The notes: generated by a model not told the origin, from the letters alone. 32,000 nucleotides of DNA from Trichlorobacter lovleyi SZ (GCF_000020385.1 NC_010814.1:1890001-1922000), one strand, 5' to 3'; positions 4,961-22,312 are shown, numbered from the stretch's first letter. A program made the numbers and translations.

Positions 4961-4991
4961 GGGGTGTTGCGGTGCAACATGTTGCAGGGTA

Positions 4992-5020
4992 TTGACATAA
5001 TATCTGTATATTCATATATT
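4992..5020 (+). promoter_or_regulatory. Candidate sigma70 promoter for the FeS/cytochrome b pair
   Basis: TTGACA (4992-4997), a 17-nt spacer, then TATATT (5015-5020), all within an AT-rich gap. AAGGAG at 5037-5042 lies 8 nt before ATG 5051. Confidence 0.45.
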
Positions 5021-5050
5021 GTTTAAAAATGTAGTAAGGAGCTGATTTTC

Positions 5051-6082: not shown

Positions 6083-6747
6083 TGTCGGCTACGAAACTGG
6101 TAAAACGTCATGAGCTGATTGTTATGCTGGAACATTGGGGCATTGCGATCTCCGGGATAGTGCTGCTGATGAGCGGCATTTTCCAACTGCCCTCGGCTGC
6201 CCGTTACAAGATTACCGCCATTCCCGGTTTCTGGTGGTCGGGCGAGTTCTTTTTCACCCTCAAACTGCACTATATCGCTTCAGTGGTTTTTGTGGGGCTG
6301 GTGCTGTTTCACCTGGTCTACCACCTGTTGTTGCAGGAACGGGCCATGATTCCCCAAAGTGGTGACGTTTCGGAATCCGTCAAGGTGTTAAAAACCTTTA
6401 TCACCAATCAGCCGGAGCCTCCCTTTGGCAAGTATCTGCCTGAGCAACGGCTGGCCTATGTGGCCATTGCAATTCCGGTGCTGATGCTGGTGATTTCCGG
6501 CCTGATCAAGACTTGGAAAAATATCTACACTCCGGACATGGACCGCACCCTGTTGCTTTGGGCCACCTGGGTGCATAACGTTGGCTTTATCCTGTTCTTT
6601 ATGGCCTTTCTGGGACATCTTGCTGCCCTGTTGATCAAACCTAATCGTCCCATGCTGCGGGGGATGCTGACCGGCAAAGTAACGCGGGAGTATGCCGAGC
6701 ACCGCCATCCCCTCTGGGTGAATGAAATAGAGAAAAAGGAGGCTTGA
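6082..6747 (+). CDS. Membrane b-type cytochrome subunit (FdnI / Ni-Fe hydrogenase cytochrome b-like)
   Basis: Four predicted TM helices with conserved His residues (EHWGIAISG, LHYIASVVF..FHLVYH, WVHNVGF..LGHLAAL). The start overlaps the upstream stop by 1 nt (TGATG). Confidence 0.7.
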   Translation: MSATKLVKRHELIVMLEHWGIAISGIVLLMSGIFQLPSAARYKITAIPGFWWSGEFFFTLKLHYIASVVFVGLVLFHLVYHLLLQERAMIPQSGDVSESVKVLKTFITNQPEPPFGKYLPEQRLAYVAIAIPVLMLVISGLIKTWKNIYTPDMDRTLLLWATWVHNVGFILFFMAFLGHLAALLIKPNRPMLRGMLTGKVTREYAEHRHPLWVNEIEKKEA

Positions 6748-6796
6748 CTCTATATCTTGTGTTGTGATAGATAGTTATCCACAACATATTCTGCTG
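6747..6796 (+). promoter_or_regulatory. Candidate tandem NrdR boxes overlapping a candidate nrdD promoter
   Basis: Box 1, ACTCTATATCTTGTGT (6747-6762), matches 14/16 of the published NrdR consensus acaCwAtATaTwGtgt. Box 2, ACAACATATTCTGCTG (6781-6796), is weaker at about 9/16. The candidate promoter is TTGTGA (6762-6767), 17 nt, CATATT (6785-6790), which places the transcription start just before the riboswitch. Confidence 0.4.
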
Positions 6797-6799
6797 TTG

Positions 6800-6976
6800 G
6801 TTGGCAGAAGCACAATACATGATCAACGGTGCCCGCAAGGGCTTGATAGGGAAGTGAGGTGAAATTCCTCCACGGACCCGCCGCTGTAAGCGACGACAAA
6901 GGGCAACACAACCACTGACTGTCAAAGTCGGGAAGGTGCCTGGAGGATGACTCGCAAGTCAGAAGACCTGCCTTGA
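6800..6976 (+). promoter_or_regulatory. Cobalamin (B12) riboswitch aptamer in the nrdD leader
   Basis: Conserved core reads GGTGCC..ATAGGGAAGTGAGGTGAAATTCC..CGGACCCGCCGCTGTAAGC..ACCACTG..GGGAAGG. The B12 box is AGTCAGAAGACCTGCC (6957-6972). P1 can form between GGCAG (6803-6807) and CTGCC (6968-6972). Confidence 0.85.
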
Positions 6977-7040
6977 TCTTACATCATGAAACTCTCCGGG
7001 GATTGGGAGTTGACGCGAGATCAGGCGACGTTAAATTCGG

Positions 7041-7085
7041 AACGTCCGCATGCTGTTTCAGGCAGCTGCGGACGTTTTCAGTTTC
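7041..7085 (+). terminator. Intrinsic terminator / riboswitch expression platform
   Basis: AACGTCCGCA (7041-7050) pairs perfectly with TGCGGACGTT (7067-7076). The stem is extended by GCTG/CAGC and followed by TTCAGTTTC. It lies between the aptamer and the nrdD RBS. Confidence 0.6.
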
Positions 7086-7133
7086 TGCCACCGCACCCCT
7101 TCCCGGACTCCACAAACAAAGGAGTCTTAAGCC

Positions 7134-9143
7134 ATGACCAAACCCGTTCTTGCAGCACCGTTTTTCGTCCTTAAACGCGACGGCACCCGTGCCCCCTTTG
7201 AGGCTTCCCGCATCCAGTCTGCCATCCAGCGGGCAGGCACGGCCACTGCAGAGTTTGGCGATGATGAGGCCATGCTCATCACCAGTCAGGTACTGAAGGT
7301 GCTGCGCCACCGTTTTCCCCAGGAACCGCCCACCATTGAGCAGATTCAGGATGTGGTGGAACAGGCCCTGATCTCGGCCAACCACTTTGCCACCCTGCGG
7401 GCCTATGCGGTCTACCGCGAACAGCGCAGCCGTCTGCGCCAGGACCGCAAAACCGTGGTGGATGTAACCGCCTCGGTCAACGAGTACCTTGACCAGAGCG
7501 ACTGGCGGGTCAGTGCCAATGCCAATCAGGGCTATTCCCTGGGGGGGCTGATCCTGAATCTGTCCGGCAAGGTGATTGCCAACTACTGGCTGAGTCAGGT
7601 CTATCCGTCAGAAGTAGGGGAGGCCCACCGCGACGGTAGCATCCATATCCATGACCTGGATATGCTGTCCGGCTACTGCGCCGGCTGGTCGTTGCGGATG
7701 CTGCTGGCCGAAGGGTTCAACGGTGTGCCGGGCAAGGTGGAGGCAGCGCCGCCCAGACATCTTTCCAGCGCCGTGGGGCAGATCGTCAACTTTCTGGGAA
7801 CCCTGCAGAACGAATGGGCCGGGGCCCAGGCCTTCAGTTCTTTTGATACCTATCTGGCCCCCTATATCCGCAAGGATAGCCTGACCTACGAGGAGGTCAG
7901 ACAGCAGATGCAGGAGCTGATCTTCAACCTGAACGTGCCGTCCCGCTGGGGCACCCAGACCCCCTTTACCAACCTGACCTTTGACTGGACCTGCCCGGAT
8001 GATCTGAAGCAGCAGGTGCCGGTGATTGCCGGTGAAGAGATGCCGTTTACCTACGGCGAGCTGCAGGCCGAAATGGACCTTATCAACCGGGTCTATATCG
8101 AGGTGATGACTGCCGGAGATGCCAAGGGCAGGATCTTTACCTTTCCGATCCCCACCTACAACATCACCCCGGACTTCCCCTGGGAGAGCGAGAATGCCGG
8201 TCTGCTGTTTGCCATGACCGCCCGCTACGGCCTGCCGTACTTCCAGAACTTTGTCAATTCAGAGCTGACCCCCAACATGGTTCGCTCTATGTGCTGCCGC
8301 CTGCAACTTGATCTGAGGGAGCTGCTGAAACGGGGCAACGGCCTGTTCGGTTCAGCCGAGCAGACCGGGTCGCTGGGGGTGGTCACCATCAACTGCGCCC
8401 GCTTGGGGCATCAGCACCAGGGGGATGAGGCAGGGCTGCTGCAACGGCTGGATCAGCTGCTGGAAATCAGCCGCACCAGCCTGGAGATCAAGCGCAAGGT
8501 GATCCAGCGCCATATTGACAACGGCCTGTTTCCCTACACCAAGCGCTACCTGGGCACCCTGCGCAACCACTTCTCCACCATCGGGGTCAACGGCATCAAT
8601 GAAATGATCCGTAACTTCAGCGCGGATCAGGAGGATATCACCACCCCGGCGGGCCACGCCCTGGCCGTACGGCTGCTGGATCACTTGCGCACAAAAATGG
8701 TGGAATTTCAGGAACAGACCGGCCACCTCTACAACCTGGAGGCCACCCCGGCGGAAGGCACCACCTACCGCTTTGCCAGAGAGGACAAGAAACGCTTCCC
8801 GCAGATCCTGCAGGCCGGTACTGCAGATGCGCCTTATTACACCAACTCATCCCAGCTTCCGGTGGGCTTTACCGATGACCCGTTTGAGGCGTTGCAACGC
8901 CAGGAAGAACTGCAGCGCAAGTATACCGGCGGCACGGTGCTGCATCTGTATCTGGGGGAACAGGTCTCCAGTGTGGAGGCCTGCAAAAATCTGGTGCGGC
9001 GCTCGCTGGAGCGGTTCAGGCTGCCCTATGTCACGGTAACGCCGACCTTTTCCATCTGCCCCAAGCATGGCTACTTAAGTGGCGAACACCAGTTCTGCCC
9101 ATTGTGCGATGAAGAACTATCCCGCAGTCAATCCCAACAATAG
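7134..9143 (+). CDS. nrdD: Anaerobic (class III) ribonucleoside-triphosphate reductase, large polypeptide lacking the glycyl-radical segment
   Basis: N-terminal ATP-cone (VLKRDGTRAPFEASRIQSAIQRA...). Long NrdD core with a C-terminal Zn-ribbon-like CPKHGYLSGEHQFCPLC. The ORF stops at TAG 9141-9143, before any RxxGY glycyl-radical motif. AAAGGAG at 7118-7124 precedes ATG 7134. Confidence 0.9.
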   Translation: MTKPVLAAPFFVLKRDGTRAPFEASRIQSAIQRAGTATAEFGDDEAMLITSQVLKVLRHRFPQEPPTIEQIQDVVEQALISANHFATLRAYAVYREQRSRLRQDRKTVVDVTASVNEYLDQSDWRVSANANQGYSLGGLILNLSGKVIANYWLSQVYPSEVGEAHRDGSIHIHDLDMLSGYCAGWSLRMLLAEGFNGVPGKVEAAPPRHLSSAVGQIVNFLGTLQNEWAGAQAFSSFDTYLAPYIRKDSLTYEEVRQQMQELIFNLNVPSRWGTQTPFTNLTFDWTCPDDLKQQVPVIAGEEMPFTYGELQAEMDLINRVYIEVMTAGDAKGRIFTFPIPTYNITPDFPWESENAGLLFAMTARYGLPYFQNFVNSELTPNMVRSMCCRLQLDLRELLKRGNGLFGSAEQTGSLGVVTINCARLGHQHQGDEAGLLQRLDQLLEISRTSLEIKRKVIQRHIDNGLFPYTKRYLGTLRNHFSTIGVNGINEMIRNFSADQEDITTPAGHALAVRLLDHLRTKMVEFQEQTGHLYNLEATPAEGTTYRFAREDKKRFPQILQAGTADAPYYTNSSQLPVGFTDDPFEALQRQEELQRKYTGGTVLHLYLGEQVSSVEACKNLVRRSLERFRLPYVTVTPTFSICPKHGYLSGEHQFCPLCDEELSRSQSQQ

Positions 9144-9156
9144 AAAGGATCGGATT

Positions 9157-9333
9157 ATGAACTCAAAACAACCGCAAACCGCCATCCCTCAGGAACAACG
9201 CCAACCCTGCGAGGTCTGGACCCGCGTGATGGGTTACCACCGCCCGGTGGCATCATTTAACACCGGCAAGAAGTCAGAGTATGCCGATAGACAGTTTTTC
9301 AAGGAAGCTGCATGCTCAGCATCGGCGGACTGA
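9157..9333 (+). CDS. Small ORF (58 aa) encoding the NrdD-type glycyl-radical segment
   Basis: MNSKQPQTAIPQEQRQPCEVWTRVMGYHRPVASFNTGKKSEYADRQFF carries the class III RNR C-terminal signature (RV-GY--PV--(W/F)N-GK--E---R). Its frame is shifted +1 relative to nrdD. AAAGGA at 9144-9149 lies 7 nt before ATG 9157. The 3' end overlaps the nrdG start. Confidence 0.6.
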   Translation: MNSKQPQTAIPQEQRQPCEVWTRVMGYHRPVASFNTGKKSEYADRQFFKEAACSASAD

Positions 9334-9893
9334 CGCCGTTCACCACCATTGATTATCCCGGCAAGCTGGCCGCAGTGGTCTTCTGCCAGGGCTGCCCCTG
9401 GCGCTGCAGCTACTGCCACAACCAGCATCTGCTGGATGCTGGCCAGTCTGGGACAGTGACGTGGCAGGAGATCATCAGGTTTCTTGAACAGCGGCGCAGC
9501 CTGCTGGATGCGGTGGTGTTCAGCGGAGGTGAACCGACTATGCAGCCCACATTGCCGGAGGCTCTGCAAGCGATACGGAGGATGGGGTTTCTGACCGGCC
9601 TCCATACCGGTGGGCCGTACCCGCAACGGCTTGCTGCCTGTCTATCGCAGCTGGATTGGGTGGGAATGGACCTGAAGGCACCCTTTAAACTGTATGATCA
9701 GATCACCGGGGTTGCCGGCAGTGGCACCCTGGCAGAACAGAGTGCAGAACTTTTACGGGCAAGCGGTGTCAGCCATCAGTTCCGCACGACGGTTGATCCG
9801 TTTTTGCTTGCAGACAACAGAATTGAAAAAATGCGGCTGATGGTTGAAGGATTTGGTGCCAAGCTGTTGTTACAACAAGCTTTGCTCCGTTAA
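9312..9893 (+). CDS. nrdG: Anaerobic ribonucleotide reductase activating enzyme (radical SAM)
   Basis: The radical-SAM cluster motif CPWRCSYCHN sits near the N-terminus (IDYPGKLAAVVFCQGCPWRCSYCHN). Size and position, directly after nrdD, are typical. Confidence 0.9.
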   Translation: MLSIGGLTPFTTIDYPGKLAAVVFCQGCPWRCSYCHNQHLLDAGQSGTVTWQEIIRFLEQRRSLLDAVVFSGGEPTMQPTLPEALQAIRRMGFLTGLHTGGPYPQRLAACLSQLDWVGMDLKAPFKLYDQITGVAGSGTLAEQSAELLRASGVSHQFRTTVDPFLLADNRIEKMRLMVEGFGAKLLLQQALLR

Positions 9894-10091
9894 GTCAAGC
9901 TCGTGTTTGCCTGCTTGTCTTTTTCAGTAGATCTGCCTGAACAAAAAACAGGTTGCGCTGATATCCGTTGCCATGGTAGTTGGTGTTACGAAATATCAAA
10001 ACGTGCTACCAGCTGTGACGCTGCTTTCATTATACTATTGACACGAGTTGGTTTGTACCAGCAGGATATCAGGCGATTTGAGGAGATGATC

Positions 10092-10886
10092 ATGCAGCCA
10101 GTTCATTCAACCACCCTTGTGCTTTGTCTTGCCCTTGTAACTGCCGGTTCGGCTTTTGCCGGACCTCCCCTTGCCACTGATGATGCCGGTACGGTTGATG
10201 TCGGCAAGGTAGAGATTGAGCTGAACAGCTCCTACGGCTACGACAGGCAGACTGTTAATGGATCAACCACCAGGACCAACACCGCTGACGGAGAAGTCAA
10301 GATCACCACCGGCCTGTATAAGGATCTTGGCATCTCCCTGGCGATTCCCTACCTATTCAATGAGCGTTCCAATCTGGATGGTGCAGTGTCCAACACCGAC
10401 GGTTTCGGTGACATGACCCTGGAGGTGAAATACCGCTTTGCAGAGCTGGCCGGCATCAATCTGGCGATCAAGCCCACGGCCATCATCCCCACCGGCAAGT
10501 ACAGCAATGGCCTGTCCGAGGGGCGTTGGCAATTCGGCGGCACCCTGATTGCCACCAAAGAGTTTGCAGATGGCGCCTACGCCCTGCATGCCAATCTTGG
10601 GTATGAATACCACCACTACCGTGAAGATGAAGGCACACAGCGCAGAAACCTCTGGTCAGGCTCCATTGCCGGTGAGGCAGAGGTTGCCAAGGGGCTGTTT
10701 GCTGTGGCTGATTTCGGTCTGGCCACCAACCCGGACAAGAGCTCAAATGAGCTGCCGGTCTATGCCCTGACCGGTCTGCGGTACGAAATCAATGATCATC
10801 TGGATGTTGATGCCGGTATCAAGTTCGGTCTGACCAGGCCGGAGACCGACGTAACCGCACTGTACGGCCTGGTGCTGAAGTTCTAA
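10092..10886 (+). CDS. Outer-membrane beta-barrel channel, copy 1 (MetA-pathway/'Phenol_MetA_deg'-like transporter family)
   Basis: Signal peptide MQPVHSTTLVLCLALVTAGSAFA. Alternating beta-strand pattern with a C-terminal aromatic residue (LVLKF). GAGGAG lies 7 nt before ATG 10092. The track's 9903 start is an upstream extension. The protein is identical to the ORF at 14677..15471. Confidence 0.8.
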   Translation: MQPVHSTTLVLCLALVTAGSAFAGPPLATDDAGTVDVGKVEIELNSSYGYDRQTVNGSTTRTNTADGEVKITTGLYKDLGISLAIPYLFNERSNLDGAVSNTDGFGDMTLEVKYRFAELAGINLAIKPTAIIPTGKYSNGLSEGRWQFGGTLIATKEFADGAYALHANLGYEYHHYREDEGTQRRNLWSGSIAGEAEVAKGLFAVADFGLATNPDKSSNELPVYALTGLRYEINDHLDVDAGIKFGLTRPETDVTALYGLVLKF

Positions 10887-10889
10887 CAC
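10092..10889 (+). repeat. Left arm of a perfect 798-bp inverted repeat
   Basis: Reverse complement of 14674-15471; paired coordinates sum to 25563. Both ends were checked by eye. Nested ORFs in other frames (10349-10558/15005-15214, 10353-10616/14947-15210, 10483-10746/14817-15080, 10549-10770/14793-15014) translate identically. Identity starts exactly at the ATG and ends 3 nt after the TAA. Confidence 0.9.
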
Positions 10890-10915
10890 AGCGGAATGAG
10901 CAACAATATCGCATT

Positions 10916-11677
10916 TCAGCATTCATCAGAGATGGTGGCTACCCGGTTTCTCCCTGCATGCTTTGCCCGGTAAAGCGCTTTATCAGCTTCAGCAACCAAC
11001 TGCTCAAAATTACCGCCAGGCAGCAAGGCCGCGCTGCCGATACTGACGGTCAGCAGACCGCAGGCATCATAGGGTGGAAACGTAATACTTTCCACCCGCC
11101 TGCGGATCCGGTCTGCAATCTGAAACGCCTCTTCCTCTACGGTCCCCCGCAATAACACCAGAAACTCCTCACCCCCCCAACGGCAGAGCATATCACATCT
11201 GCGTAATGCACTACCCGCAACCTGGGCAAACTTCTTGAGTATCTGGTCTCCGGCAGTATGACCAAAGGTATCATTTACCTTTTTAAAATGATCAATATCT
11301 GCCATCAGCACAGCCAGCGGCAGCTCCTGGTCAGCATATCTGCGTATTTCATGCCGCAGGATCATGTTGGCTGCATGGCGGTTCAGGCAGCCGGTCAGCT
11401 GGTCATAGTTGGCCATATCCCGAAGCGTTTCAAAGTGGCTTTTGATCGGTCGTACGACAATATGGGCAGCCAGCGTGAGGGGGAATGCCAGGCGTGTGCC
11501 GTCAAGGCCCAGCACAACTTTGTGGCTGACCAGCGGGTCAAAATGCAGCATGTCCACCATTCTGCCTTCGCGCAGCCCCATGTCGCGTAATCGTCTGGTG
11601 TCTGAACAATTGCTGTTTATGGCAACGATTTCAGCGGTCTCCCCGGTGTATAGTTCGTTAATGTGGAGTAATGCCAA
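10916..11677 (-). CDS. FeoA-domain / GGDEF-domain fusion (predicted diguanylate cyclase)
   Basis: The N-terminal FeoA-like SH3 domain reads LYTGETAEIVAI...RRLRDMGLREGRMVDML...LGLDGTRLAFPLTLAAHIVV. The C-terminal GGDEF domain has an intact GGEEF active site and an RxxD I-site 5 residues upstream (RRCDMLCRWGGEEF). AAGGAG (11689-11684) lies 6 nt before TTG 11677, so the track start at 11698, which contains the SD, is rejected. Confidence 0.85.
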   Translation of the reverse strand: MALLHINELYTGETAEIVAINSNCSDTRRLRDMGLREGRMVDMLHFDPLVSHKVVLGLDGTRLAFPLTLAAHIVVRPIKSHFETLRDMANYDQLTGCLNRHAANMILRHEIRRYADQELPLAVLMADIDHFKKVNDTFGHTAGDQILKKFAQVAGSALRRCDMLCRWGGEEFLVLLRGTVEEEAFQIADRIRRRVESITFPPYDACGLLTVSIGSAALLPGGNFEQLVAEADKALYRAKHAGRNRVATISDEC

Positions 11678-11692
11678 GGTTATCTCCTTTAA

Positions 11693-11753
11693 TAACAACG
11701 CAGCCAGCCGAAACGGCTCCGAAAGTCTCCTGTTTTGGCTGGCTGCGTTGTTA
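11693..11753 (-). other. Long intercistronic hairpin just upstream of the FeoA-GGDEF RBS
   Basis: 17 perfect base pairs (TAACAACGCAGCCAGCC at 11693-11709 with GGCTGGCTGCGTTGTTA at 11737-11753). The stem extends to about 23 bp if G-U pairs are allowed. No U-tract follows on the minus-strand RNA; the next bases are AUUAAAGGAG. Confidence 0.5.
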
Positions 11754-11777
11754 ACGTGGCTGGCGAGTATTCAGTTG

Positions 11778-11906
11778 TCAGTGGTTGCAGCTTCCTCCGC
11801 AACCGTCGCTGCCACAGCAGCCCTTCTTTTTCCAGAGTGAGCAATAGAGGAGCCATACGGCTCCTCCTGCGATCAGGATCATCAAACTTACATCAAACCA
11901 TCTCAT
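11778..11906 (-). CDS. FeoB-associated Cys-rich small membrane protein (42 aa)
   Basis: Hand translation gives MRWFDVSLMILIAGGAVWLLYCSLWKKKGCCGSDGCGGSCNH. That is one TM helix, a KKK stretch and a Gly/Cys-rich tail, matching the known FeoB-associated Cys-rich family. It starts 8 nt after the feoB stop and is below the ORF-track length cutoff. Confidence 0.75.
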   Translation of the reverse strand: MRWFDVSLMILIAGGAVWLLYCSLWKKKGCCGSDGCGGSCNH

Positions 11907-11913
11907 GGTCGCC

Positions 11914-14055
11914 TCACAGTCCCAGGAGCCTGCCGCTCTGATAGATAATCAGCGCCACCAGCCAGGCCAGCACGGTTGAGTAGGCAAAGGCCACACCGGC
12001 CCATTTCCAGGTGCCAAACTCCTGCCGCATGGCAGCTCCTACCACCACGCAGGGCATATAGAGCAGGACAAAGGCCATGAAGCTGAATGAGCTGAGAGGG
12101 GTGAATTGACCTTGCAGCGCTGTTTTCAAGGCTGATTGTTCTTCTTCCGGCTCATCTTGCTGCGGCAGATAGAACAGGGTGCTGAAAGCCTTCTTCACTG
12201 CCCCGCCAAAGGAGACCACAAGCTCTTTCAGGTCTTCGCCAAGGGTCGGCATCTCCTTTTTCTCTTCTTCTTTCCTGGGGGCGTAGATCTCGCCCATGGT
12301 GCCCACCACGATCTCTTTGGCAATCACGCCGGTAATCAGCGATGAAGCGGCCTCCCAGGTACCGAACCCAACCGGCTGGAAGACAGGAGCAATGGCAGCG
12401 CCGGCCTTGCCCAGGTAGGAGTCGCGTTTATGCTCTACCCCCCAGGGCAGGTTCAGCATGAACCAGACCAGTACTGAGACCGCAAAGATATAGGTGCCGG
12501 CCTTGATCAGGAAGTGTTTGCCTTTCTCCCAGGTGTGCAGGCAGAGGCTGGTAAGGGAGGGCATCCGGTAGGGGGGCAGCTCCATGATGAACATGGGCGC
12601 CTCGCCCCTGAACAGGGTCTTTTTGAAGATAAAACCCATCAACACTGCCAGCAGCATGCCCAGAATGTACAGTATCCAGATCACGGTGCCGGAGTTGTTG
12701 GGGAAGAACACACCCACAAACAGCACATAGACCGGTAACCGGGCGCCGCAGGACATCAAGGGTATCAAGAGGGCGGTCAGGATCTTGTCTTTGGGGTTTT
12801 CCAGGGTGCGGGTGGCATAGATGCCCGGCACGTTGCAGCCGAAACCCAGCAGCATCGGGATAAAGGATTTGCCGTGCAGTCCAATGGCATGCATGGCCCG
12901 GTCCATCACAAAGGCGGCCCGCGCCATGTAGCCGCTGCCTTCCAGGAAGGTGATGAAGAACATCATGGCAAAGATCACCGGTACAAAGACCAGCACCGAG
13001 CCGACCCCGGCGATCACACCGTCGTTCACCAGCGACACGGTCCAGTCCGGCGCATTGATGCTGCCCAGCATGGCTGCAACCCAACGCTTGAGCGGCCCGC
13101 CCGTCATCTCGTCGATCCAGTCGCTAAATGGTGATGAGAGATCAAAGGTCAGTTTGAACAACAACCACATGGCTGCTGCAAAGATCGGAATACCCAGGAA
13201 GCGGTTCAGCACGATCCGGTCGATCCGTTCAGTCAGCTCAATGTTGCGTTTTTCAGGTCTGGATAAAACTTCACGGCACAGGCCGTTGGACAGTGCATAG
13301 CGTACATCGGCCAGAATACTCTCGATATCATCGCCGTGGGCACGCAGCAGATGTTCAAACAGCTGGGCCGGTAATGAGCCAACCGAAATGTTTGCTGCTT
13401 TGTAGACCAGACTGTCTCCTTCCAGCAGTTTTAACAACAACCAGCGCTGTGGATATTTTTCCAGCAGGCCGCCCTGTTCACGTTGGATATACTCCCGCAG
13501 TCCGGTCAGGACGGTTTCAATATCATCACCATAATTGAGTGTTCTGGGGCTGTTCCGCTTGTCTGCAACCACCGCCTTGAGCAGCTGGTCAAGGCCGGTC
13601 TTTCTGGTGGCAGAGGTAGGGATCACCGCAATACCCAGAGTCTCTTCCATCTGCCTGGTGTTGATCTTGTAACCCTTGGCCTCAGCCTCATCAAAGATGT
13701 TGAGTGCCATTATCATTGGGATGCCAAGTTCAAGCAGCTGCATGGTCAGGTACAGGTTGCGCTCAAGGTTGGTGGCGTCCACTACGTTGATGATCAGGTC
13801 AGGCTTTTCAGTGACCAGATAATCGCGGGTGATGATCTCTTCCTGGCTGTAGGGTGACAGTGAGTAACAGCCGGGCAGGTCAACCAGCCGGATACTGCGT
13901 CCATCAACATCGAACAGGGCCTCTTTTTTCTCTACTGTGACGCCGGGCCAGTTACCCACATGCAGGCGGCTGCCGGCAATGGCATTGATCAGGGTGGATT
14001 TGCCGGCATTGGGGTTTCCGGCAACAGCGACTACCAACGGTTTGTGCTGGCTCAT
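11914..14055 (-). CDS. feoB: Ferrous iron transporter FeoB
   Basis: N-terminal G-domain with GNPNAGKST (G1), DLPG (G3) and NIFD (G4-like), followed by a large polytopic membrane domain. 713 aa. The start overlaps the feoA stop (ATGA). Confidence 0.95.
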   Translation of the reverse strand: MSQHKPLVVAVAGNPNAGKSTLINAIAGSRLHVGNWPGVTVEKKEALFDVDGRSIRLVDLPGCYSLSPYSQEEIITRDYLVTEKPDLIINVVDATNLERNLYLTMQLLELGIPMIMALNIFDEAEAKGYKINTRQMEETLGIAVIPTSATRKTGLDQLLKAVVADKRNSPRTLNYGDDIETVLTGLREYIQREQGGLLEKYPQRWLLLKLLEGDSLVYKAANISVGSLPAQLFEHLLRAHGDDIESILADVRYALSNGLCREVLSRPEKRNIELTERIDRIVLNRFLGIPIFAAAMWLLFKLTFDLSSPFSDWIDEMTGGPLKRWVAAMLGSINAPDWTVSLVNDGVIAGVGSVLVFVPVIFAMMFFITFLEGSGYMARAAFVMDRAMHAIGLHGKSFIPMLLGFGCNVPGIYATRTLENPKDKILTALLIPLMSCGARLPVYVLFVGVFFPNNSGTVIWILYILGMLLAVLMGFIFKKTLFRGEAPMFIMELPPYRMPSLTSLCLHTWEKGKHFLIKAGTYIFAVSVLVWFMLNLPWGVEHKRDSYLGKAGAAIAPVFQPVGFGTWEAASSLITGVIAKEIVVGTMGEIYAPRKEEEKKEMPTLGEDLKELVVSFGGAVKKAFSTLFYLPQQDEPEEEQSALKTALQGQFTPLSSFSFMAFVLLYMPCVVVGAAMRQEFGTWKWAGVAFAYSTVLAWLVALIIYQSGRLLGL

Positions 14056-14282
14056 GGGCAGACCTCGATTTCAATCCCCTTGGCTTCATTCTTGCGCAGC
14101 GAGAGGTTGTAGCTTTTGATTGATACCTCTATCGGATCACCCATCGGCGCCACCTTTTCTACCTTAACGGTCTCGCCGGGGATTACACCCATATCCATCA
14201 GACGGCGACGGATCGGGCCGATGCTGCTGTCGAGTTTCAAAATTTTACCCTGTTGGCCAGGTTTCAGATTGCTCAGGTTCAT
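14052..14282 (-). CDS. feoA: FeoA
   Basis: 76-aa SH3-like FeoA: LSNLKPGQQGKILKL...RRRLMDMGVIPGETVKVEKVAPMGDPIEV. Overlaps both neighbouring genes. Confidence 0.9.
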   Translation of the reverse strand: MNLSNLKPGQQGKILKLDSSIGPIRRRLMDMGVIPGETVKVEKVAPMGDPIEVSIKSYNLSLRKNEAKGIEIEVCP

Positions 14283-14575
14283 GCCATAACTCCCTTCACC
14301 TTGATGCTGCGTGCCATGCGGCGGTCAATGGCGATCCGGGCTTCGTCCACCAGTAATAGCAGCAGATTGCCGTCATTGCTCAGGACTTCCACCTGCTTGC
14401 CCACCCGTAGCCCCATTTCTTCTGCCCTGGTGGCAGTGGCTTTTTTGTGGTGATGGCCGTGATCATGGTGATGAGACTGTCCGTGACTATGGCATCCGCC
14501 GCCACAACCACCGCAGTGTCTGATTTCAAAAATTTCGCCCCGTTCTCCCGGGGTAAGCAGTTCAAGTGGCATCAT
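14279..14575 (-). CDS. FeoA paralog with an internal Cys/His-rich insertion
   Basis: FeoA-like ends (LELLTPGERGEIFEI ... EEMGLRVGKQVEVLSNDGNLLLLLVDEARIAIDRRMA) are interrupted by HCGGCGGGCHSHGQSHHHDHGHHHKK. GGAGG (14585-14581) lies 5 nt before ATG 14575. Confidence 0.8.
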   Translation of the reverse strand: MMPLELLTPGERGEIFEIRHCGGCGGGCHSHGQSHHHDHGHHHKKATATRAEEMGLRVGKQVEVLSNDGNLLLLLVDEARIAIDRRMARSIKVKGVMA

Positions 14576-14673
14576 TCATTCCTCCGCTGAGAAGTTGGCC
14601 GCAAAAGATCACGGAGATCTCAAAAAAATCTATTACTTCCTTTGTGTTCCTTGCGTTCTTTTGCGGCAATCAG

Positions 14674-15471
14674 GTGTTAGAACTTCAGCACCAGGCCGTA
14701 CAGTGCGGTTACGTCGGTCTCCGGCCTGGTCAGACCGAACTTGATACCGGCATCAACATCCAGATGATCATTGATTTCGTACCGCAGACCGGTCAGGGCA
14801 TAGACCGGCAGCTCATTTGAGCTCTTGTCCGGGTTGGTGGCCAGACCGAAATCAGCCACAGCAAACAGCCCCTTGGCAACCTCTGCCTCACCGGCAATGG
14901 AGCCTGACCAGAGGTTTCTGCGCTGTGTGCCTTCATCTTCACGGTAGTGGTGGTATTCATACCCAAGATTGGCATGCAGGGCGTAGGCGCCATCTGCAAA
15001 CTCTTTGGTGGCAATCAGGGTGCCGCCGAATTGCCAACGCCCCTCGGACAGGCCATTGCTGTACTTGCCGGTGGGGATGATGGCCGTGGGCTTGATCGCC
15101 AGATTGATGCCGGCCAGCTCTGCAAAGCGGTATTTCACCTCCAGGGTCATGTCACCGAAACCGTCGGTGTTGGACACTGCACCATCCAGATTGGAACGCT
15201 CATTGAATAGGTAGGGAATCGCCAGGGAGATGCCAAGATCCTTATACAGGCCGGTGGTGATCTTGACTTCTCCGTCAGCGGTGTTGGTCCTGGTGGTTGA
15301 TCCATTAACAGTCTGCCTGTCGTAGCCGTAGGAGCTGTTCAGCTCAATCTCTACCTTGCCGACATCAACCGTACCGGCATCATCAGTGGCAAGGGGAGGT
15401 CCGGCAAAAGCCGAACCGGCAGTTACAAGGGCAAGACAAAGCACAAGGGTGGTTGAATGAACTGGCTGCAT
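14674..15471 (-). repeat. Right arm of the perfect 798-bp inverted repeat
   Basis: See the left arm. Flanking sequence diverges immediately outside the ATG and at stop+3 on both sides. Confidence 0.9.
14677..15471 (-). CDS. Outer-membrane beta-barrel channel, copy 2 (identical to copy 1), first gene upstream of feoA/feoB on the same strand
   Basis: 264 aa, identical to the product of 10092..10886. GGAG lies in the leader, 7 nt before ATG 15471. Confidence 0.8.
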   Translation of the reverse strand: MQPVHSTTLVLCLALVTAGSAFAGPPLATDDAGTVDVGKVEIELNSSYGYDRQTVNGSTTRTNTADGEVKITTGLYKDLGISLAIPYLFNERSNLDGAVSNTDGFGDMTLEVKYRFAELAGINLAIKPTAIIPTGKYSNGLSEGRWQFGGTLIATKEFADGAYALHANLGYEYHHYREDEGTQRRNLWSGSIAGEAEVAKGLFAVADFGLATNPDKSSNELPVYALTGLRYEINDHLDVDAGIKFGLTRPETDVTALYGLVLKF

Positions 15472-15472
15472 A

Positions 15473-15536
15473 AGGTGTCTCCTTTTGTTGTCAAAATTTG
15501 AAATTAGGGCTGGCTATATGGTGAGTGGAGACACCT
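15473..15536 (-). promoter_or_regulatory. SD-sequestering hairpin in the leader of porin copy 2
   Basis: On the minus-strand RNA, AGGUGUCUCC (complement of 15536-15527) pairs perfectly with GGAGACACCU (complement of 15482-15473). The second arm contains the Shine-Dalgarno GGAG and ends 1 nt before the AUG. The loop is 44 nt. Confidence 0.5.
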
Positions 15537-15552
15537 GTGGCTGGCTTACGCG

Positions 15553-15678
15553 TTATTTGGTTAAGATAAGTTTGTTGTTGCCGGTAATCCTTAAACGGTA
15601 TTCTTCATCCGCGTGCAGGATGAAGATTTCCTGCTGGTTACCAAACAGATCTGCACTGGTGATGACCCGCTTTTCCAT
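15553..15678 (-). CDS. hemP: HemP/HmuP-family small protein (41 aa)
   Basis: Hand translation gives MEKRVITSADLFGNQQEIFILHADEEYRLRITGNNKLILTK. The pattern (I-H-----Y-LR-T--(G/N)KLILTK at the C-terminus) is the hemin-uptake HemP signature. The ATG lies 1 nt after the upstream TAA. It is below the ORF-track length cutoff. Confidence 0.8.
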   Translation of the reverse strand: MEKRVITSADLFGNQQEIFILHADEEYRLRITGNNKLILTK

Positions 15679-15679
15679 C

Positions 15680-16018
15680 TTAGGTCTGTGCCTCCTTTCC
15701 TGATTGACTGCAGATAGCAGATGCCGGTTGTTGCTGTATCAAGCTGACGCAGTTGAGGCATTCACGCAAGGTACAGACACCGCAGGCGTGGTGCATGAAC
15801 ACCGGAATTCCCTGTTTTTTAGCAGCAGACACCGCTTCATTACGTGCCTGGTGCGATACCTTGTTGGTAAAGATGACAACAGCATCGGCATGTCTGATCT
15901 TGCTGCCCATGTTTTGCTCGGCCCGGCTGAAAATCCGCAGATTCATCCCCTGCTTTTTCGCCTCTTTCAGGTACTGCTCTCCTAACCGGTCCATACCTCC
16001 CACCAGTATGATGCTCAT
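15680..16018 (-). CDS. DUF2325-like protein with a C-terminal CxxC-x4-CxxC
   Basis: MSIILVGGMDRLGEQY...ADAVVIFTNKVSHQARNEAV...GIPV matches my recollection of the DUF2325 family. The tail is ACGVCTLRECLNC. ATGA overlap with the upstream gene. Confidence 0.65.
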   Translation of the reverse strand: MSIILVGGMDRLGEQYLKEAKKQGMNLRIFSRAEQNMGSKIRHADAVVIFTNKVSHQARNEAVSAAKKQGIPVFMHHACGVCTLRECLNCVSLIQQQPASAICSQSGKEAQT

Positions 16019-16740
16019 AGTTTCGCTCCATGAAGAAGATGAAAATCGATATCATTATTCTGGCAAAAAAAAGGGTGCTCAGGATCTCCAATTTCAAGCA
16101 TCCGCCGGTTGCCGGTGGCGAGAATTGCGCCCATACGTTGACGACAGCAGCGGTAGTCTTCTGCCAGACGCAGACTGTGTACCGGATTGCCGTAGATCTT
16201 CCAGAGTGCCTGGCAGGTAAACGGCAGTTTCACCAGCCCCATAAAAGCAGCCACATCCTTAGGGGGGTAGCCGATGAACAGGCCGATCTCGTGCGGGAAA
16301 CCGTCATGCTCAACAATCCGCTGTGTCAGCAGATCAAACAGTTCGTCCAGGCAGGCCTGTGGTTTGTAGCCGGCCTTGTGAAGCAGCGTGCGGATACCGG
16401 CATGGGACATATGCTGTTCCAGCTGTTTACGGTCAAAGCAGAGCAGCAGGAAGGCCTTTGGTTTGTTCTGCAGCACAATAAACTCAAGGTTGCCGAATCG
16501 GCAGGCTATCTGCTGCTGATGGGCCTGCCAGAGATGGTACAGATTTCTGCCGCAGGGCCGGGTCCTGTTAACCAGCGGAACGAGGTTGGCCGGTTTGGCT
16601 CCGGCAAGCACTTCAGAACACTCCAACATCAGATGTGCAGTCAGGCAATCCAGGGGGGATTCATATTTTGCAAGCAGTTCAGGAACGGCATGAACCATGG
16701 GTCGTGTGGTGTGTTTTCGGTCGGATCGGTAAAAACCCAT
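16015..16740 (-). CDS. DUF3793-like protein
   Basis: The motifs GAKPANL, FPHEIGLFIGYPPKDVAAFMG and WKIYGNP resemble the DUF3793 family as I recall it. First gene after the Fur-box region. Confidence 0.65.
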   Translation of the reverse strand: MGFYRSDRKHTTRPMVHAVPELLAKYESPLDCLTAHLMLECSEVLAGAKPANLVPLVNRTRPCGRNLYHLWQAHQQQIACRFGNLEFIVLQNKPKAFLLLCFDRKQLEQHMSHAGIRTLLHKAGYKPQACLDELFDLLTQRIVEHDGFPHEIGLFIGYPPKDVAAFMGLVKLPFTCQALWKIYGNPVHSLRLAEDYRCCRQRMGAILATGNRRMLEIGDPEHPFFCQNNDIDFHLLHGAKL

Positions 16741-16756
16741 GGGGGCGCCCTTTCTT

Positions 16757-16775
16757 GTAAATGATTTTTGTTATC
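16757..16775 (-). promoter_or_regulatory. Candidate Fur box upstream of the DUF3793-to-feo operon
   Basis: The minus strand reads GATAACAAAAATCATTTAC, a 14/19 match to the classical Fur consensus GATAATGATAATCATTATC. It lies 17-35 nt upstream of ATG 16740 and overlaps a candidate -10 (TATTGA). Confidence 0.45.
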
Positions 16776-16783
16776 AATAGTGT

Positions 16784-16803
16784 GTTGACAAATATATGTC
16801 AAC
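16784..16803. promoter_or_regulatory. 20-bp near-perfect palindrome GTTGACAAATATATGTCAAC (candidate operator; also supplies a TTGACA -35 on the minus strand)
   Basis: 9 of 10 positions are self-complementary. On the minus strand, TTGACA (16802-16797) lies 17 nt upstream of TATTGA (16779-16774). Confidence 0.4.
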
Positions 16804-16859
16804 TGTTTTTTGTGACTGCAGATAAAACGGTGAGTGGGACGTCTGCGGTCTACGAGAGG

Positions 16860-17312
16860 TCAGTGGTCTGAACAGCTTTTGCAAACGCCATACATAACGA
16901 TGGTTTTTGAATCTATCTGTCCCCATTGAGCAACATCGGCAGGTGGTTCCAGCGTATCTACAACAGGCCACTGAAAGTCTACAACGCGCTTGCACTGGCT
17001 GCAAATCAGGTGATGGTGGGGTGCGTAAACCGCCTCAAAACGTGCCTGGCTTTCAGCTGTTTGAATGCGTGCAACCAACTGGTGTTCCTCCAGGGTGGTC
17101 AGGGTGCGATAGACCGTATCAAGTGAGATGGTCGGGAGTGTCGCCAACAAACGCTTGTGGAGTGTCTCGGCAGTGGGGTGATCAGGCTGATTGACCAATT
17201 GTCGGTAGATTTCTGTACGTTGATGGGTGACTTTCAGACCGGCGTCTCTGCAGGCAGTCACAAACTGTTCCATCATCTGTTTAGGCTGTTCCTGACTACA
17301 GGTGGTTGCCAT
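16860..17312 (-). CDS. Fur-family metalloregulator (Fur or PerR type)
   Basis: Winged-helix region LKVTHQRTEIYRQL...HPTAETLHKRL...ISLDTVYRTLTTLEE. Metal sites HHHLICSQC and GVCKSC. 150 aa. Confidence 0.85.
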   Translation of the reverse strand: MATTCSQEQPKQMMEQFVTACRDAGLKVTHQRTEIYRQLVNQPDHPTAETLHKRLLATLPTISLDTVYRTLTTLEEHQLVARIQTAESQARFEAVYAPHHHLICSQCKRVVDFQWPVVDTLEPPADVAQWGQIDSKTIVMYGVCKSCSDH

Positions 17313-17339
17313 GGCAATACTCCATTTTTCTATTACTTG

Positions 17340-17353
17340 GTAAGAATCATTAC
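17340..17353 (-). promoter_or_regulatory. Candidate autoregulatory operator GTAATGATTCTTAC (minus-strand reading)
   Basis: Identical at 12/14 positions to the 14-mer at 18867-18880. It overlaps a candidate -10 (AATGAT) located 17 nt downstream of a minus-strand TTGACA (17374-17369). Confidence 0.4.
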
Positions 17354-17497
17354 TTCTTGCACCGCTTTTGTCAAGAAAACTGTTGCAGGTTCAACTGAAC
17401 GTGTGACGCTCCTGTAGCTTGCATGATTCTGTTTTCAGGTTACACTCAAGAAAACGTGTTGTGCTTATTTCAGGGTTCTTGAACAGGGAGGAGATGT

Positions 17498-18208
17498 ATG
17501 CCGGATAATTTACTGATTCCGTCGGTTGATTTGCGGGTAGGGGCGCTGGAGGAATATAATCGTACCCAGAAACAGAAGGCGATGCTGCGTCATAAAAAGC
17601 CGAAGCCACGTCCATGCGTGACAATTTCGCGCCAATTCGGGTGTCTTGGGTATCCGGTTGCAGAACGGGTTTGTGAGCTGATGAGCCATAAAAGTGGTGA
17701 GCAGTGGTTGTTGATCGATCGGGCCGTACTTGATGAAGTGGCAAAGCACCATAATATTTCAAAAGATATTCTTGAGAGTCTGGGGGAAAAGAACCGTCTT
17801 CTGGATGATATACTGGCAACCTTTTCTCCACGCTGGACCCATAGTCAGGACTGTTTCAGGCTGCTGTGCAAACATGTGGTCAGCCTTGCAGAACAGGGGA
17901 ATGTCATCATTATGGAACTGGGCGGGGCAATCATCACCAGGCATTTTGAACATTCAAAGCATTTCAGGATCTACGGATCAATGGATTTCAAGGTGCGGGC
18001 CATAGCACAGCGGCTTCAGATTGAGTATGCGGCTGCGGAAAAAATGGTGATCAAGCAGCAGAAGCAACGCGATGCCTTTACCAGGGATTTTCTGGATCAG
18101 GATGATCATAACCCTGCTCTGTACGAGTTGCTGTTCAATAATGATCGTAATTCCGTTGAAAAAATTGCCGCCACCATAGTCGCCTATGTTGCGGATGAAC
18201 TGTTGTGA
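17498..18208 (+). CDS. Cytidylate-kinase-like family (P-loop-like) protein
   Basis: PCVTISRQFGCLGYPVAERVCELM... resembles the 'cytidylate kinase-like family' N-terminus. GGGAGGAG precedes ATG 17498. Confidence 0.6.
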   Translation: MPDNLLIPSVDLRVGALEEYNRTQKQKAMLRHKKPKPRPCVTISRQFGCLGYPVAERVCELMSHKSGEQWLLIDRAVLDEVAKHHNISKDILESLGEKNRLLDDILATFSPRWTHSQDCFRLLCKHVVSLAEQGNVIIMELGGAIITRHFEHSKHFRIYGSMDFKVRAIAQRLQIEYAAAEKMVIKQQKQRDAFTRDFLDQDDHNPALYELLFNNDRNSVEKIAATIVAYVADELL

Positions 18209-18298
18209 AATTAATTATTGACATTTTACTAGATAGGTATTATTCCTAACAAACCGATTCCGGTCGGTGCTACTACTTTCAAACTGGAGGACGTTCCC

Positions 18299-18805
18299 AT
18301 GGCTAATGGACCAAAATCTGAAAAAAATCTACAGGATGCTTTTGCCGGTGAATCCCAGGCTAACCGTAAATATCTGGCATTTGCCAAGCAGGCTGATAAA
18401 GAAGGTTTCCCTCAGGTCGCCCGCCTGTTCCGTGCTGCTGCCGAGGCAGAGACGGTGCATGCCCATAATCACTTGAAGGCGCTTGGCGGGATCAAAACCA
18501 CCAGGGAAAACCTGGTGGAGGCAATTGGCGGCGAGACCCATGAGTTTAAAGAGATGTATCCACCCATGATTGAAGCTGCCAAGGAAGATGGCGCTGCTGA
18601 AGCCCTGCGTTCCTTTACCTATGCCAATACTGTGGAAAAGACCCATGCCGAGCTGTATCAAAAGGCCTTTGATACCCTTGGCCAGACTGGTGAACAGTTT
18701 GATTACTATGTTTGTCCGATCTGCGGTCATACGGTAGAAAAGGGTGCGCCGGACAAGTGCGAGGTCTGTGGAGCTGCCGGTTCGGTATTTGTGCAGATTA
18801 AGTAG
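18299..18805 (+). CDS. rbr: Rubrerythrin (ferritin-like diiron domain plus C-terminal rubredoxin-like CxxC...CxxC)
   Basis: LQDAFAGESQANRKYLAFA...EAETVHAHNH..., then CPICGH...CEVCGA. Confidence 0.9.
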   Translation: MANGPKSEKNLQDAFAGESQANRKYLAFAKQADKEGFPQVARLFRAAAEAETVHAHNHLKALGGIKTTRENLVEAIGGETHEFKEMYPPMIEAAKEDGAAEALRSFTYANTVEKTHAELYQKAFDTLGQTGEQFDYYVCPICGHTVEKGAPDKCEVCGAAGSVFVQIK

Positions 18806-18817
18806 ATTTTTTTAGGG

Positions 18818-18856
18818 AAGCGGGTTGCATCAAGAGATGCACCCGCTTTGATTTTG
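18818..18856 (+). terminator. Rho-independent terminator after rbr
   Basis: AAGCGGGTTGCATC / loop AAGA / GATGCACCCGCTT forms 13 bp with one bulged base. It is followed by TGATTTTG. Confidence 0.7.
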
Positions 18857-18866
18857 TCTTTTAGTA

Positions 18867-18880
18867 GTAATTATTATTAC
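18867..18880 (+). promoter_or_regulatory. Candidate operator GTAATTATTATTAC upstream of katG
   Basis: 14-bp palindrome with 6/7 self-complementary pairs. It overlaps a candidate -10, TATTAT (18872-18877), located 18 nt after TTGATT (18848-18853). It matches 17340-17353 at 12/14 positions. Confidence 0.4.
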
Positions 18881-18908
18881 CTAAAAAATATTGTGCTATT
18901 GACATTAG

Positions 18909-21221
<2,313 letters not shown>

Positions 21222-21733: not shown

Positions 21734-22312
21734 ATGTCCAAGTCAGTCAAAGGCACCAAGACCGAACAGAACCTGCTGAAATCATTTGCCGGTGAGAGTC
21801 AGGCACGCATGCGCTATACCTACTTTTCCGCTGCTGCCAAAAAAGAAGGCTACGTGCAGATCGCTGATATCTTTGAGGAGACCGCCAACCAGGAAAAGGA
21901 ACACGCCAAGCGCTTTTTCAAATTTCTGGAAGGTGGCATGGTGGAGATCACCGCCTGTTTTCCGGCCGGTGTGATCGGTACCACAGCCGAGAACCTGCTG
22001 GCAGCTGCCAATGGTGAGCATGAAGAACACACTGAGCTGTATCCTGCCTTTGCTGCAGTTGCCAAGGAAGAGGGGTTTGCCGAGATTGCAGCTGTCTGGA
22101 ACGCAATATCAGTAGCAGAAAAACAACATGAAAAGCGCTATCGCGATCTGTTGGCAAATATTGAGGCCGGCCGCGTCTTCCAGCGGGAAGAGATTGTGGT
22201 CTGGCGCTGCCGTAACTGTGGCTACCTGCACAGCAATAAATCAGCACCGGAACTGTGTCCGGCCTGTGCCCATCCGATGGCTCACTTTGAACTACTGGGT
22301 GAAAACTGGTAG
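21734..22312 (+). CDS. rbr: Rubrerythrin (classical ~191-aa type)
   Basis: KGTKTEQNLLKSFAGESQARMRYTYFSAAAKKEGYVQIADIFEETANQEKEHAKRFFKFLEGG. C-terminal CRNCGY...CPACAH. Confidence 0.95.
   Translation: MSKSVKGTKTEQNLLKSFAGESQARMRYTYFSAAAKKEGYVQIADIFEETANQEKEHAKRFFKFLEGGMVEITACFPAGVIGTTAENLLAAANGEHEEHTELYPAFAAVAKEEGFAEIAAVWNAISVAEKQHEKRYRDLLANIEAGRVFQREEIVVWRCRNCGYLHSNKSAPELCPACAHPMAHFELLGENW

Follow-up and report, generated by a model that had tools for sequence, protein, structure and literature searches.

The 32,000-nucleotide (nt) stretch of the Trichlorobacter lovleyi SZ genome analysed here (GCF_000020385.1, NC_010814.1:1890001-1922000; called the window below and numbered from its first base) carries two identical porin genes in opposite orientation. 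One follows the anaerobic ribonucleotide reductase genes nrdDG, the other heads the Fe(II) uptake genes feoA'-feoA-feoB, and the feo genes lie between the two. Comparison with public contigs indicates that this duplication is older than the split between the species and a sister lineage, and that the copies are kept alike by gene conversion; crossovers between them may also turn the enclosed 3.8-kb segment around. We consider an old inverted duplication with gene conversion and occasional inversion quite likely as the overall explanation of the locus.

The inverted repeat

A repeat search found a single long inverted repeat in the window, 10092-10889 and 14674-15471, with arms of 798 nt that are 100% complementary and 3784 nt apart. 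A perfect match of this length by chance is impossible. Arm 1 (+ strand) consists of the open reading frame (ORF) of porin copy 1 (10092-10886, 264 amino acids) and three further bases; arm 2 (- strand) carries porin copy 2 (14677-15471). Direct reading of both ends places the 5' edge of identity at the A of the ATG, preceded by ...gaggagatgatc (last base c) in copy 1 and by ...aaaaggagacacctt (last base t) in copy 2. The 3' edge lies three bases after the stop codon (TAA followed by CAC), beyond which the sequences continue as agcgg... and ctgat.... Both the outer and the inner flanks of the two arms are unrelated in sequence. Off-frame ORFs of 52, 69, 87, 87 and 73 amino acids are duplicated with the arms, a trivial consequence of their identity.

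A preliminary description of this DNA had reported exact reverse complements with unrelated 5' leaders and 3' flanks, enclosing FeoA', FeoA, FeoB, a Cys-rich peptide and a FeoA-GGDEF protein. The repeat search and the reading of the arm ends agree with it, and the four Feo proteins have Pfam matches; the Cys-rich peptide corresponds to a 42-amino acid ORF without support from hidden Markov models.

The locus was retrieved from dozens of independent assemblies by exact-protein matches, and contigs of variant strains were found through a conserved 58-amino acid NRDD fragment; L-numbers are the labels of the public contigs compared in this analysis. More than 20 independent public contigs end at the arm edges or hold one arm with its unique flank. 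Many comprise just the DNA between the arms and k-1 bases from either arm (3784-4066 nt), and others, entering from the nrdG or the hemP side, stop 30, 55 or 141 nt inside the arm. Such breakage at the arm edges is the behaviour of a true two-copy repeat. The Logan contig L004 (k=31) traverses the whole arm without a variant bubble.

Ancestral order and age of the duplication

Approximately 30 loci of the Geobacteraceae, collected in genome and metagenome scans, share the order Fur-DUF3793-DUF2325-hemP-porin-feoA'-feoA-feoB, which identifies copy 2 and the orientation seen in the window as the ancestral operon. Among the loci compared, the order nrdG-porin is confined to the window's species and one sister lineage. 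The latter is represented by contig Ga0209749_1000206 of the Joint Genome Institute (JGI), 94.5 kb in length and 92-94% identical to the window, with which it is colinear throughout the structure. The two arms of this contig have 72 mismatches in 830 nt (90.8% identity), and their homology starts exactly at the ATG and runs approximately 45 nt past the stop codon. On this comparison the ATG boundary of the arms is ancestral and the boundary at stop+3 is secondary. Identity ends at stop+3 in the window because its spacer between porin copy 2 and feoA' differs from that of the sister lineage, the two being unrelated in sequence. The trimming from ATG to stop+3 described earlier is thus correct for the window, but only the ATG edge is old.

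Each arm of the window differs from the sister-lineage copies at 69-77 of the 798 sites and the sister arms differ from one another at 71, against none between the arms of the window; paralogues within the window genome are more alike than orthologues between lineages. Within the species, 39 variable sites of the arms were tabulated. The two arms of sample ERZ27247094 agree in having 120G/234C, where the window differs, and over their first 236 nt site 97 alone distinguishes them; 140 nt beyond this site each contig stops, which is the distance expected from a graph with k=141. The arms of sample ERZ27237442 differ at 36 sites and define an A-type and a B-type sequence. Mosaics of these types occur in other strains. 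The nrdG-linked arm of the metagenome-assembled genome GCA_021849865.1 (L071) begins as A-type (1-413), turns B-type at 441-570 and has the A-type base again at 703, and in arms of the L033 type the 5' part is B-type and the 3' part A-type. The breakpoints vary in position between strains.

Twenty-three of the 36 A/B differences fall within arm nt 510-570, a hypervariable patch located at 10601-10661 (+) in arm 1 and 14902-14962 (-) in arm 2. The corresponding amino acid differences (residues 178-189) are placed by an AlphaFold2 (AF2) model and standard barrel topology in the long loop joining strands 7 and 8, which is predicted to be extracellular. This loop region is the most variable stretch in the consensus of the porin family. 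Identity at all 798 sites, in a porin that is hypervariable between strains, means that the copies were homogenised recently within the genome, i.e. by gene conversion. Judged from these alignments, the duplication predates the separation of the species from its sister lineage and its identity is kept by gene conversion.

Probable inversion of the feo segment

Both possible arrangements of the segment between the arms are represented among the public contigs. The window-type junction nrdG-arm-GGDEF occurs in L005 and the sister contig, and the window-type junction hemP-arm-feoA' in L001/L002, L033, L035-37, L061 and the sister contig. The inverted junction nrdG-arm-feoA' is found in L003 (GCA_047291845.1), L052 (JGI 3300050186), L067 and L071, and its counterpart hemP-arm-GGDEF in L006 and L008. 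L001 and L002 were rejected as two long-read witnesses, their error patterns being nearly identical bin by bin, and are treated as one observation.

A second line of evidence comes from the hypervariable patch. The B patch matches the nrdG-linked copy of the sister lineage at 27 of 37 sites, and the A patch matches the sister's hemP-linked copy at 29 of 37 and single-copy outgroups at 23-25 of 37. The arrangement is reversed in ERZ27237442, where A lies behind nrdG and B behind hemP. A swap of this kind needs reciprocal exchange, as sequential non-reciprocal conversion in one genome cannot produce it, and reciprocal exchange between inverted repeats means inversion followed by re-inversion. 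The allele swap in this sample therefore suggests past crossovers, and we infer from the contig sequences that the inversion polymorphism is probably real.

A number of observations weigh against this reading. Short reads cannot phase arms that are identical over 798 nt, and L003, L052, L005, L006 and L008 may be arbitrary graph paths. The k-mer coverage of L008 is only 0.83, and this contig and L006, which stop at an identical base, may come from one sample. The two inverted contigs with apparent phasing are not secure either: L067 stops exactly 140 nt past the last A/B difference, and in L071 the distance from the last discriminating site to the junction may exceed 141 nt. In ERZ27237442 the feoA' flank is entered by both arm types, over 45 nt in L067 and 96 nt in L061; this is impossible for a single genome and points to a mixture of strains, to iterative-k artefacts or to a 96-nt extension of one arm. 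The patch swap could come from ectopic recombination with imported DNA. Lastly, all securely phased or long-read-like junction contigs (the sister contig, L001/L002 and probably those of the L033 type) are in the window orientation.

We considered that the strains behind L061, L067 and L071 have arms extended by the 96-nt feoA' spacer; this would explain why both arms lead into feoA' and why contigs end at 14578. Independent contigs share several internal end positions, namely approximately 13315 (L001, L002), 14578 (L061, L071), which is 2 nt before the feoA' ATG, and 11743 (L006, L008), and L003 ends at 14033. These repeated ends may reflect strain-level structural variation or extended repeats in some strains.

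Possibly, though we think it unlikely, the arms are static inverted paralogues that undergo conversion only, the feo segment inverting to a negligible extent or its inversions being purged, and the inverted contigs being products of mis-threading or strain mixtures. The inability of short reads to phase identical arms, the window orientation of every securely phased contig and the mutually incompatible junctions of ERZ27237442, where both arms lead to feoA', are all as this would predict. Arm-crossing contigs of the window-type strain, furthermore, stand at about three inverted to two window-type (plus the window), as random path choice would give, and tuf inversions in Salmonella carry a fitness cost (PMC6735719). 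Set against this, crossovers accompany a large share of the conversion events in tuf, the A/B patch swap is impossible by sequential non-reciprocal conversion inside one genome, and six independent assemblies have inverted junctions, two of them on arms with strain-specific single-nucleotide polymorphisms. Conversion together with occasional inversion is the reading that we carry forward.

Regulatory surroundings

The two porin copies lie behind very different upstream sequences. A cobalamin riboswitch (6809-6989, +; Rfam RF00174, full-length, 109.4 bits against a gathering threshold of 31.5) is located upstream of nrdD, and B12 elements are known to precede nrdDG in delta-proteobacteria (Rodionov et al. 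2004, PMC545781). It places nrdDG, and probably also porin copy 1, under B12 control. The 198-nt leader of copy 1 (9894-10091, +) has the Shine-Dalgarno (SD) sequence GAGGAG, and searches of it revealed no stable predicted structure (z = +1.59), no sigma-70-like match, no AGCCAGCC boxes and no Fur box. Since this leader is without a predicted promoter, transcription of copy 1 probably continues from the riboswitch-nrdDG unit. A scan for promoters and terminators produced no convincing candidate in this leader or downstream of the arms.

In the leader of copy 2 (15472-15552, -) the SD lies within a predicted 10-bp anti-SD/SD stem, GGUGUCUCC/GGAGACACC (z = -1.85). The same leader contains two AGCCAGCC boxes (15508-15546, -), approximately 23 nt apart, around a small variable hairpin. 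This pair, just upstream of the porin ATG, is invariant in all 17 hemP-porin leaders compared (the window, L087, L076, L078-L081, L084, L011, L012, L014, L015, L017, L018, L020, L031 and L074). The pattern occurs once in the window, where none is expected, its covariation is weak (2 of 8 pairs), and no Rfam family corresponds to it. From its conservation the AGCCAGCC element could be a protein-binding site or an RNA regulatory element of the porin-feo operon.

In the window orientation the feo genes are co-oriented with the hemP operon. When scanned with the Escherichia coli 19-mer and with the 17-mer consensus of delta-proteobacteria, the window showed only weak Fur-box matches, none of them in a porin leader. 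The strongest (16755-16771) agrees at 13 of 17 positions and overlaps a promoter-like site (16791-16764), together forming a candidate promoter with a weak Fur-box-like site at 16755-16791 (-); about 3.5 sites of at least 12 of 17 are expected by chance in the window. The spacer between porin copy 2 and feoA' (14576-14673, -) contains a long predicted hairpin (14588-14673, -; -27.2 kcal/mol, z = -2.25) which may be a small inserted element or an attenuator.

These results affect the earlier account unevenly. Its sequestered SD in copy 2 and open SD in copy 1 agree with the predicted 10-bp stem and with the lack of stable structure in the copy-1 leader. The Fur box that it assigned to the operon of copy 2 comes down to the weak site just described, which by itself is not significant. 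Copy 1 does lie downstream of nrdDG, as it said, but the cobalamin riboswitch heading that unit had been missed.

Proposed history of the locus

We propose that the channel gene of the PF13557/COG4313 family heading the hemP-porin-feoA'-feoA-feoB operon was duplicated long ago in inverted orientation. The extra copy (copy 1) would have been set tail-to-tail with the feo module, behind the riboswitch-controlled nrdDG, and the same channel would thereby be expressed from two regulatory units. The two ORF-length arms would recombine by the general homologous recombination machinery, presumably of the RecA type. Non-reciprocal exchange, that is gene conversion, would repeatedly homogenise the arms, and in the window strain would recently have erased all differences. 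A crossover between the inverted arms would flip the 3.8-kb feo segment, so that both orientations are expected, and apparently seen, in natural genomes. Inversion would then be a by-product of the recombination that maintains the arms rather than a dedicated switch. The geometry set out in the preliminary description is correct: inversion keeps both porin ORFs intact and moves feoA'-feoA-feoB from copy 2 to nrdDG-copy 1, and the feo genes would pass from the hemP/Fur side to the B12-riboswitch/nrdDG side. A further point tells against this history. The exact ATG boundary is unexplained by it, no paralogue following nrdG in more distant relatives; an older PF13557 paralogue behind nrdG, converted so as to give the exact ATG edge, was rejected on the same ground.

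Whether the inversion is a selected phase-variation device, the promoter-swap switch of the preliminary description, toggling feoA'-feoA-feoB-(Cys peptide)-FeoA-GGDEF between the two leaders as bet-hedging of Fe(II) uptake, seems doubtful to us. The geometry would serve such a device, the leaders (a structured SD with AGCCAGCC boxes on the one hand and the B12-riboswitch nrdDG-porin unit on the other) are very different in sequence and predicted structure, and both junction types are present in public data. The architecture has survived a species-level split, and in a more distant relative, too, feoA'-feoA-feoB lies between two inverted PF13557 genes. There is, however, no dedicated recombinase, and the copy-1 leader has no detectable promoter or Fur box. 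The arms of the sister lineage have diverged to 9%, which would cripple recombination and implies that selection does not consistently preserve the identity of the arms; and feoA', feoA, most of feoB, nrdDG and copy 1 have all been lost from one conspecific strain. In a related and equally speculative idea the twin ORFs would serve as arms of 'portable homology' by which RecA shuttles an operon: a subpopulation, by inverting the segment, would transfer feoA'-feoA-feoB, the Cys-rich peptide and FeoA-GGDEF from the iron-responsive hemP leader to the riboswitch-controlled nrdDG-porin unit, and would thereby couple Fe(II) uptake and cyclic di-GMP signalling to B12 status. Conversion would keep such a switch competent and would also shuffle, between the channel copies, a surface loop exposed to phages or bacteriocins.

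The remaining explanations can be dealt with briefly. Very recent duplication, ongoing gene conversion and active homologous inversion had been offered as causes of the zero divergence; of the three it is the second that is supported, by the 9% distance between the sister arms and by the mosaics. The first, a duplication of the porin ORF too young for divergence, would account for 100% identity over 798 nt in the window, but it is refuted by the sister-lineage and conspecific comparisons and is very improbable: the same duplicate, at the same position and with the same ATG edge, exists in a lineage 6-8% diverged, where the arms are 9% apart, and conspecific arms may differ at 36 sites. A single porin copy in relatives had been named as the sign of such a plain duplication; single-copy outgroups do exist, but the sister lineage carries the same inverted pair.

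Long perfect inverted repeats are a classic product of misassembly, yet a source assembly in which the repeat was collapsed or duplicated, or unrelated sequences were joined into a chimera, is scarcely credible when both arms with their unique outer flanks are found in many independent assemblies from different samples and pipelines, when contigs break at the arm edges as with a true two-copy repeat, and when a 94-kb contig with diverged arms covers the entire structure.

Pfam scans of all substantial ORFs of the 32-kb window revealed no recombinase, integrase, invertase or transposase domain. A site-specific invertible element was rejected as a candidate, the arms being complete ORFs of 798 nt with no defined crossover core and the window having no recombinase gene. 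A composite transposon or mobile element with porin-gene arms is suggested only by identical inverted arms bracketing a cargo segment and can be dismissed, as the preliminary description did: the arms encode an outer-membrane channel and not a transposase, none is present in the window, there are no target-site duplications in the flanking bases, and in all strains, as in the sister lineage, the locus keeps its place between cytb and fur.

Gene content and the channel protein

The arm ORF matches PF13557 (Phenol_MetA_deg) with 74.7 bits (cut-off 22) over profile positions 11-242 of 242. A search of the PDB by sequence gave no match and a fold search was needed. The AF2 model of the protein has 12 strands (predicted local distance difference test score 79), and Foldseek matched it to FapF and to the COG4313 channel 4RL8, the latter with an E value of 5.6e-9 and a template-modelling score of 0.67-0.68. 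On this modelling the porin is a 12-strand outer-membrane channel of the PF13557/COG4313 group.

The genes upstream of copy 1 are nrdD (7134-9143, +; Pfam NRDD/ATP-cone), specifying the anaerobic ribonucleotide reductase, a small ORF with the C-terminal part of NRDD (9157-9333, +) and the activase gene nrdG (9312-9893, +; Pfam Radical_SAM/Fer4_12); public gene calls also support this stretch. Copy 1 is separated by 26 nt (10890-10915, read directly) from the stop codon of the convergent FeoA-GGDEF gene, and some strains have a 10-nt deletion (10898-10907) in this spacer. FeoA-GGDEF (10916-11698, -), a diguanylate cyclase and the last gene of the invertible segment, is supported by Pfam (GGDEF 4.6e-44, FeoA 4.2e-12) and NCBIfam. 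It is preceded by feoB (11914-14055, -), feoA (14052-14282, -) and feoA' with a His/Cys-rich insert (14279-14575, -), all identified by Pfam and headed by porin copy 2 in the ancestral position. Beyond copy 2, Pfam identified hemP (15553-15678, -), DUF2325 (15680-16018, -), DUF3793 (16015-16740, -) and fur (16860-17312, -).

The 42-amino acid ORF (11778-11906, -) was seen in the three-frame translation. Its product combines a transmembrane helix with the tail CCGSDGCGGSC; searches of Pfam and NCBIfam gave no match, and the ORF overlaps a domain-less 55-amino acid ORF (11689-11856, -) of public annotations. We take it to resemble the Cys-rich peptides associated with FeoB, and it is more plausible than the 55-amino acid ORF in that role.

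Two weak direct repeats, each of 72% identity and unrelated to the arms, are due to paralogous genes elsewhere in the window: ATPases of ATP-binding cassette (ABC) transporters (26326-26432 and 29374-29480) and rubrerythrins (18551-18600 and 22034-22083).

Relatives and gene loss

The genes behind nrdG in more distant relatives are TonB-receptor/btu genes or Fur and ZnuA. In L116 (JGI 3300076802, 4214-15401) metE stands between nrdD and nrdG, and a TonB-dependent receptor and a btuFCD-like ABC transporter follow, which looks like a composite operon for B12 sparing and B12 uptake.

Other PF13557 paralogues precede ZnuA (L074) and cbiMNQO (T. thiogenes, L016), and their homology begins only after the signal peptide. 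The 12.5-kb contig L074 (SRR26543737), from a more distant relative, carries inverted PF13557 genes at 3855-4649 (+) and 8634-9434 (-) which bracket feoA'-feoA-feoB and znuA; the two are 75% identical and the second heads znuA. The family is repeatedly attached to operons for the uptake of divalent metals (znuA, cbiMNQO, feo). Paralogues at the head of znuA and cbiMNQO operons suggest that the PF13557 channel is a general entry channel for divalent metals, and such a role suggests a rationale for its expression under both the iron and the B12/cobalt regimes.

Another T. lovleyi strain, GCA_050171295.1 (L057, a 346-kb contig), is 99.7% identical to the window in the hemP flank (13 mismatches in 4207 nt). 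Its porin ORF has 172 mismatches (21.5% different) from about nt 59-120 to the stop codon, the strain's own allele being 80% identical. Loss of genes was assessed by comparing L057, L056 and L059 with 14644-19678 and 5421-6754 of the window. The strain lacks feoA', feoA, most of feoB, nrdDG, porin copy 1 and FeoA-GGDEF; a 220-bp remnant of the feoB 3' end (86% identity) is left, and a CCP_MauG peroxidase gene adjoins cytb instead. These comparisons mark the locus out as a hotspot at which alleles are replaced and genes lost.

Significance and comparison with known systems

The locus is a clear natural case, beyond the tuf genes of the enterobacteria, of ORF-delimited concerted evolution of inverted duplicates, and it offers population snapshots with arms at 0, approximately 1, 36 and 72 differences and mosaics between them. 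It also illustrates how a duplication can place a metal-uptake channel under two regulons (iron and B12). The compact segment of 3.8 kb that it points to may occur in both orientations in Trichlorobacter populations of the environment, organisms of importance for organohalide respiration and for corrinoid supply in dechlorinating consortia. In practical terms, assemblies of short-read metagenomes will mis-thread or break the locus. If inversion is frequent and regulatory, this would be a recombinase-free operon swap; otherwise it is ordinary repeat biology.

Hin, FimB/E, the invertons of Bacteroides and the shufflons employ short repeats (10-30 bp) and a dedicated recombinase. They resemble the window in having inverted repeats around a segment, whose orientation in those systems alters gene expression; in the window, however, the repeats are ORFs of 798 bp and no recombinase is nearby. 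Closer is the sap system of Campylobacter fetus, in which RecA-dependent inversion takes place between the conserved 5' regions of oppositely oriented S-layer genes. There too homologous inversion between gene-derived repeats alters the pairing of promoter and coding sequence, but the single promoter is inside the invertible segment and the repeats are only the 5' parts of different genes, whereas in the window the repeats are whole ORFs, the promoters are outside, and it is the downstream operon that moves.

In Staphylococcus aureus reversible chromosome inversions between inverted repeats lead to mixed populations and phenotype switching (Guerillot et al. 2019, PMC6778178). These likewise arise by homologous recombination, but they are megabase-scale and pleiotropic, as compared with a 3.8-kb segment and a specific operon. 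The Fur regulon of Geobacter includes a porin-feoA-feoA-feoB operon, with a porin of the OprB family in G. sulfurreducens (Rodionov et al. 2004, PMC545781). An outer-membrane channel gene comes first there as in the window, where the porin belongs to PF13557/COG4313 and not to OprB, and no inverted duplicate copy is described for the Geobacter operons in that publication.

The closest known system is the tufA/tufB pair of Salmonella and E. coli (Abdulkarim & Hughes 1996; Hughes 2000). In Salmonella these are two genes in inverse orientation which convert one another and in which up to approximately half of the selected events carry an inversion that swaps promoter and terminator contexts (PMC5485169, PMC6735719). 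As in that pair (Paulsson et al. 2017; Brandis et al. 2019), the window has full-length inverse ORFs with homology limited to the coding sequence and near-identity kept by conversion. At the sequence level the resemblance covers two full-length inverse paralogous ORFs with approximately ORF-limited homology and unrelated flanks, an arrangement also present in the sister lineage, paralogues closer to one another than to their orthologues in that lineage, and mosaic arms with patches of the partner's sequence. The differences are of scale and of kind. The tuf genes are 762 kb apart and the arms of the window 3.8 kb; tuf is a conserved essential gene and the window gene a fast-evolving surface channel with a hypervariable loop; and while a tuf inversion reorders many genes, the segment flipped in the window would be the body of one promoter-less operon, so that a single operon is re-plumbed.

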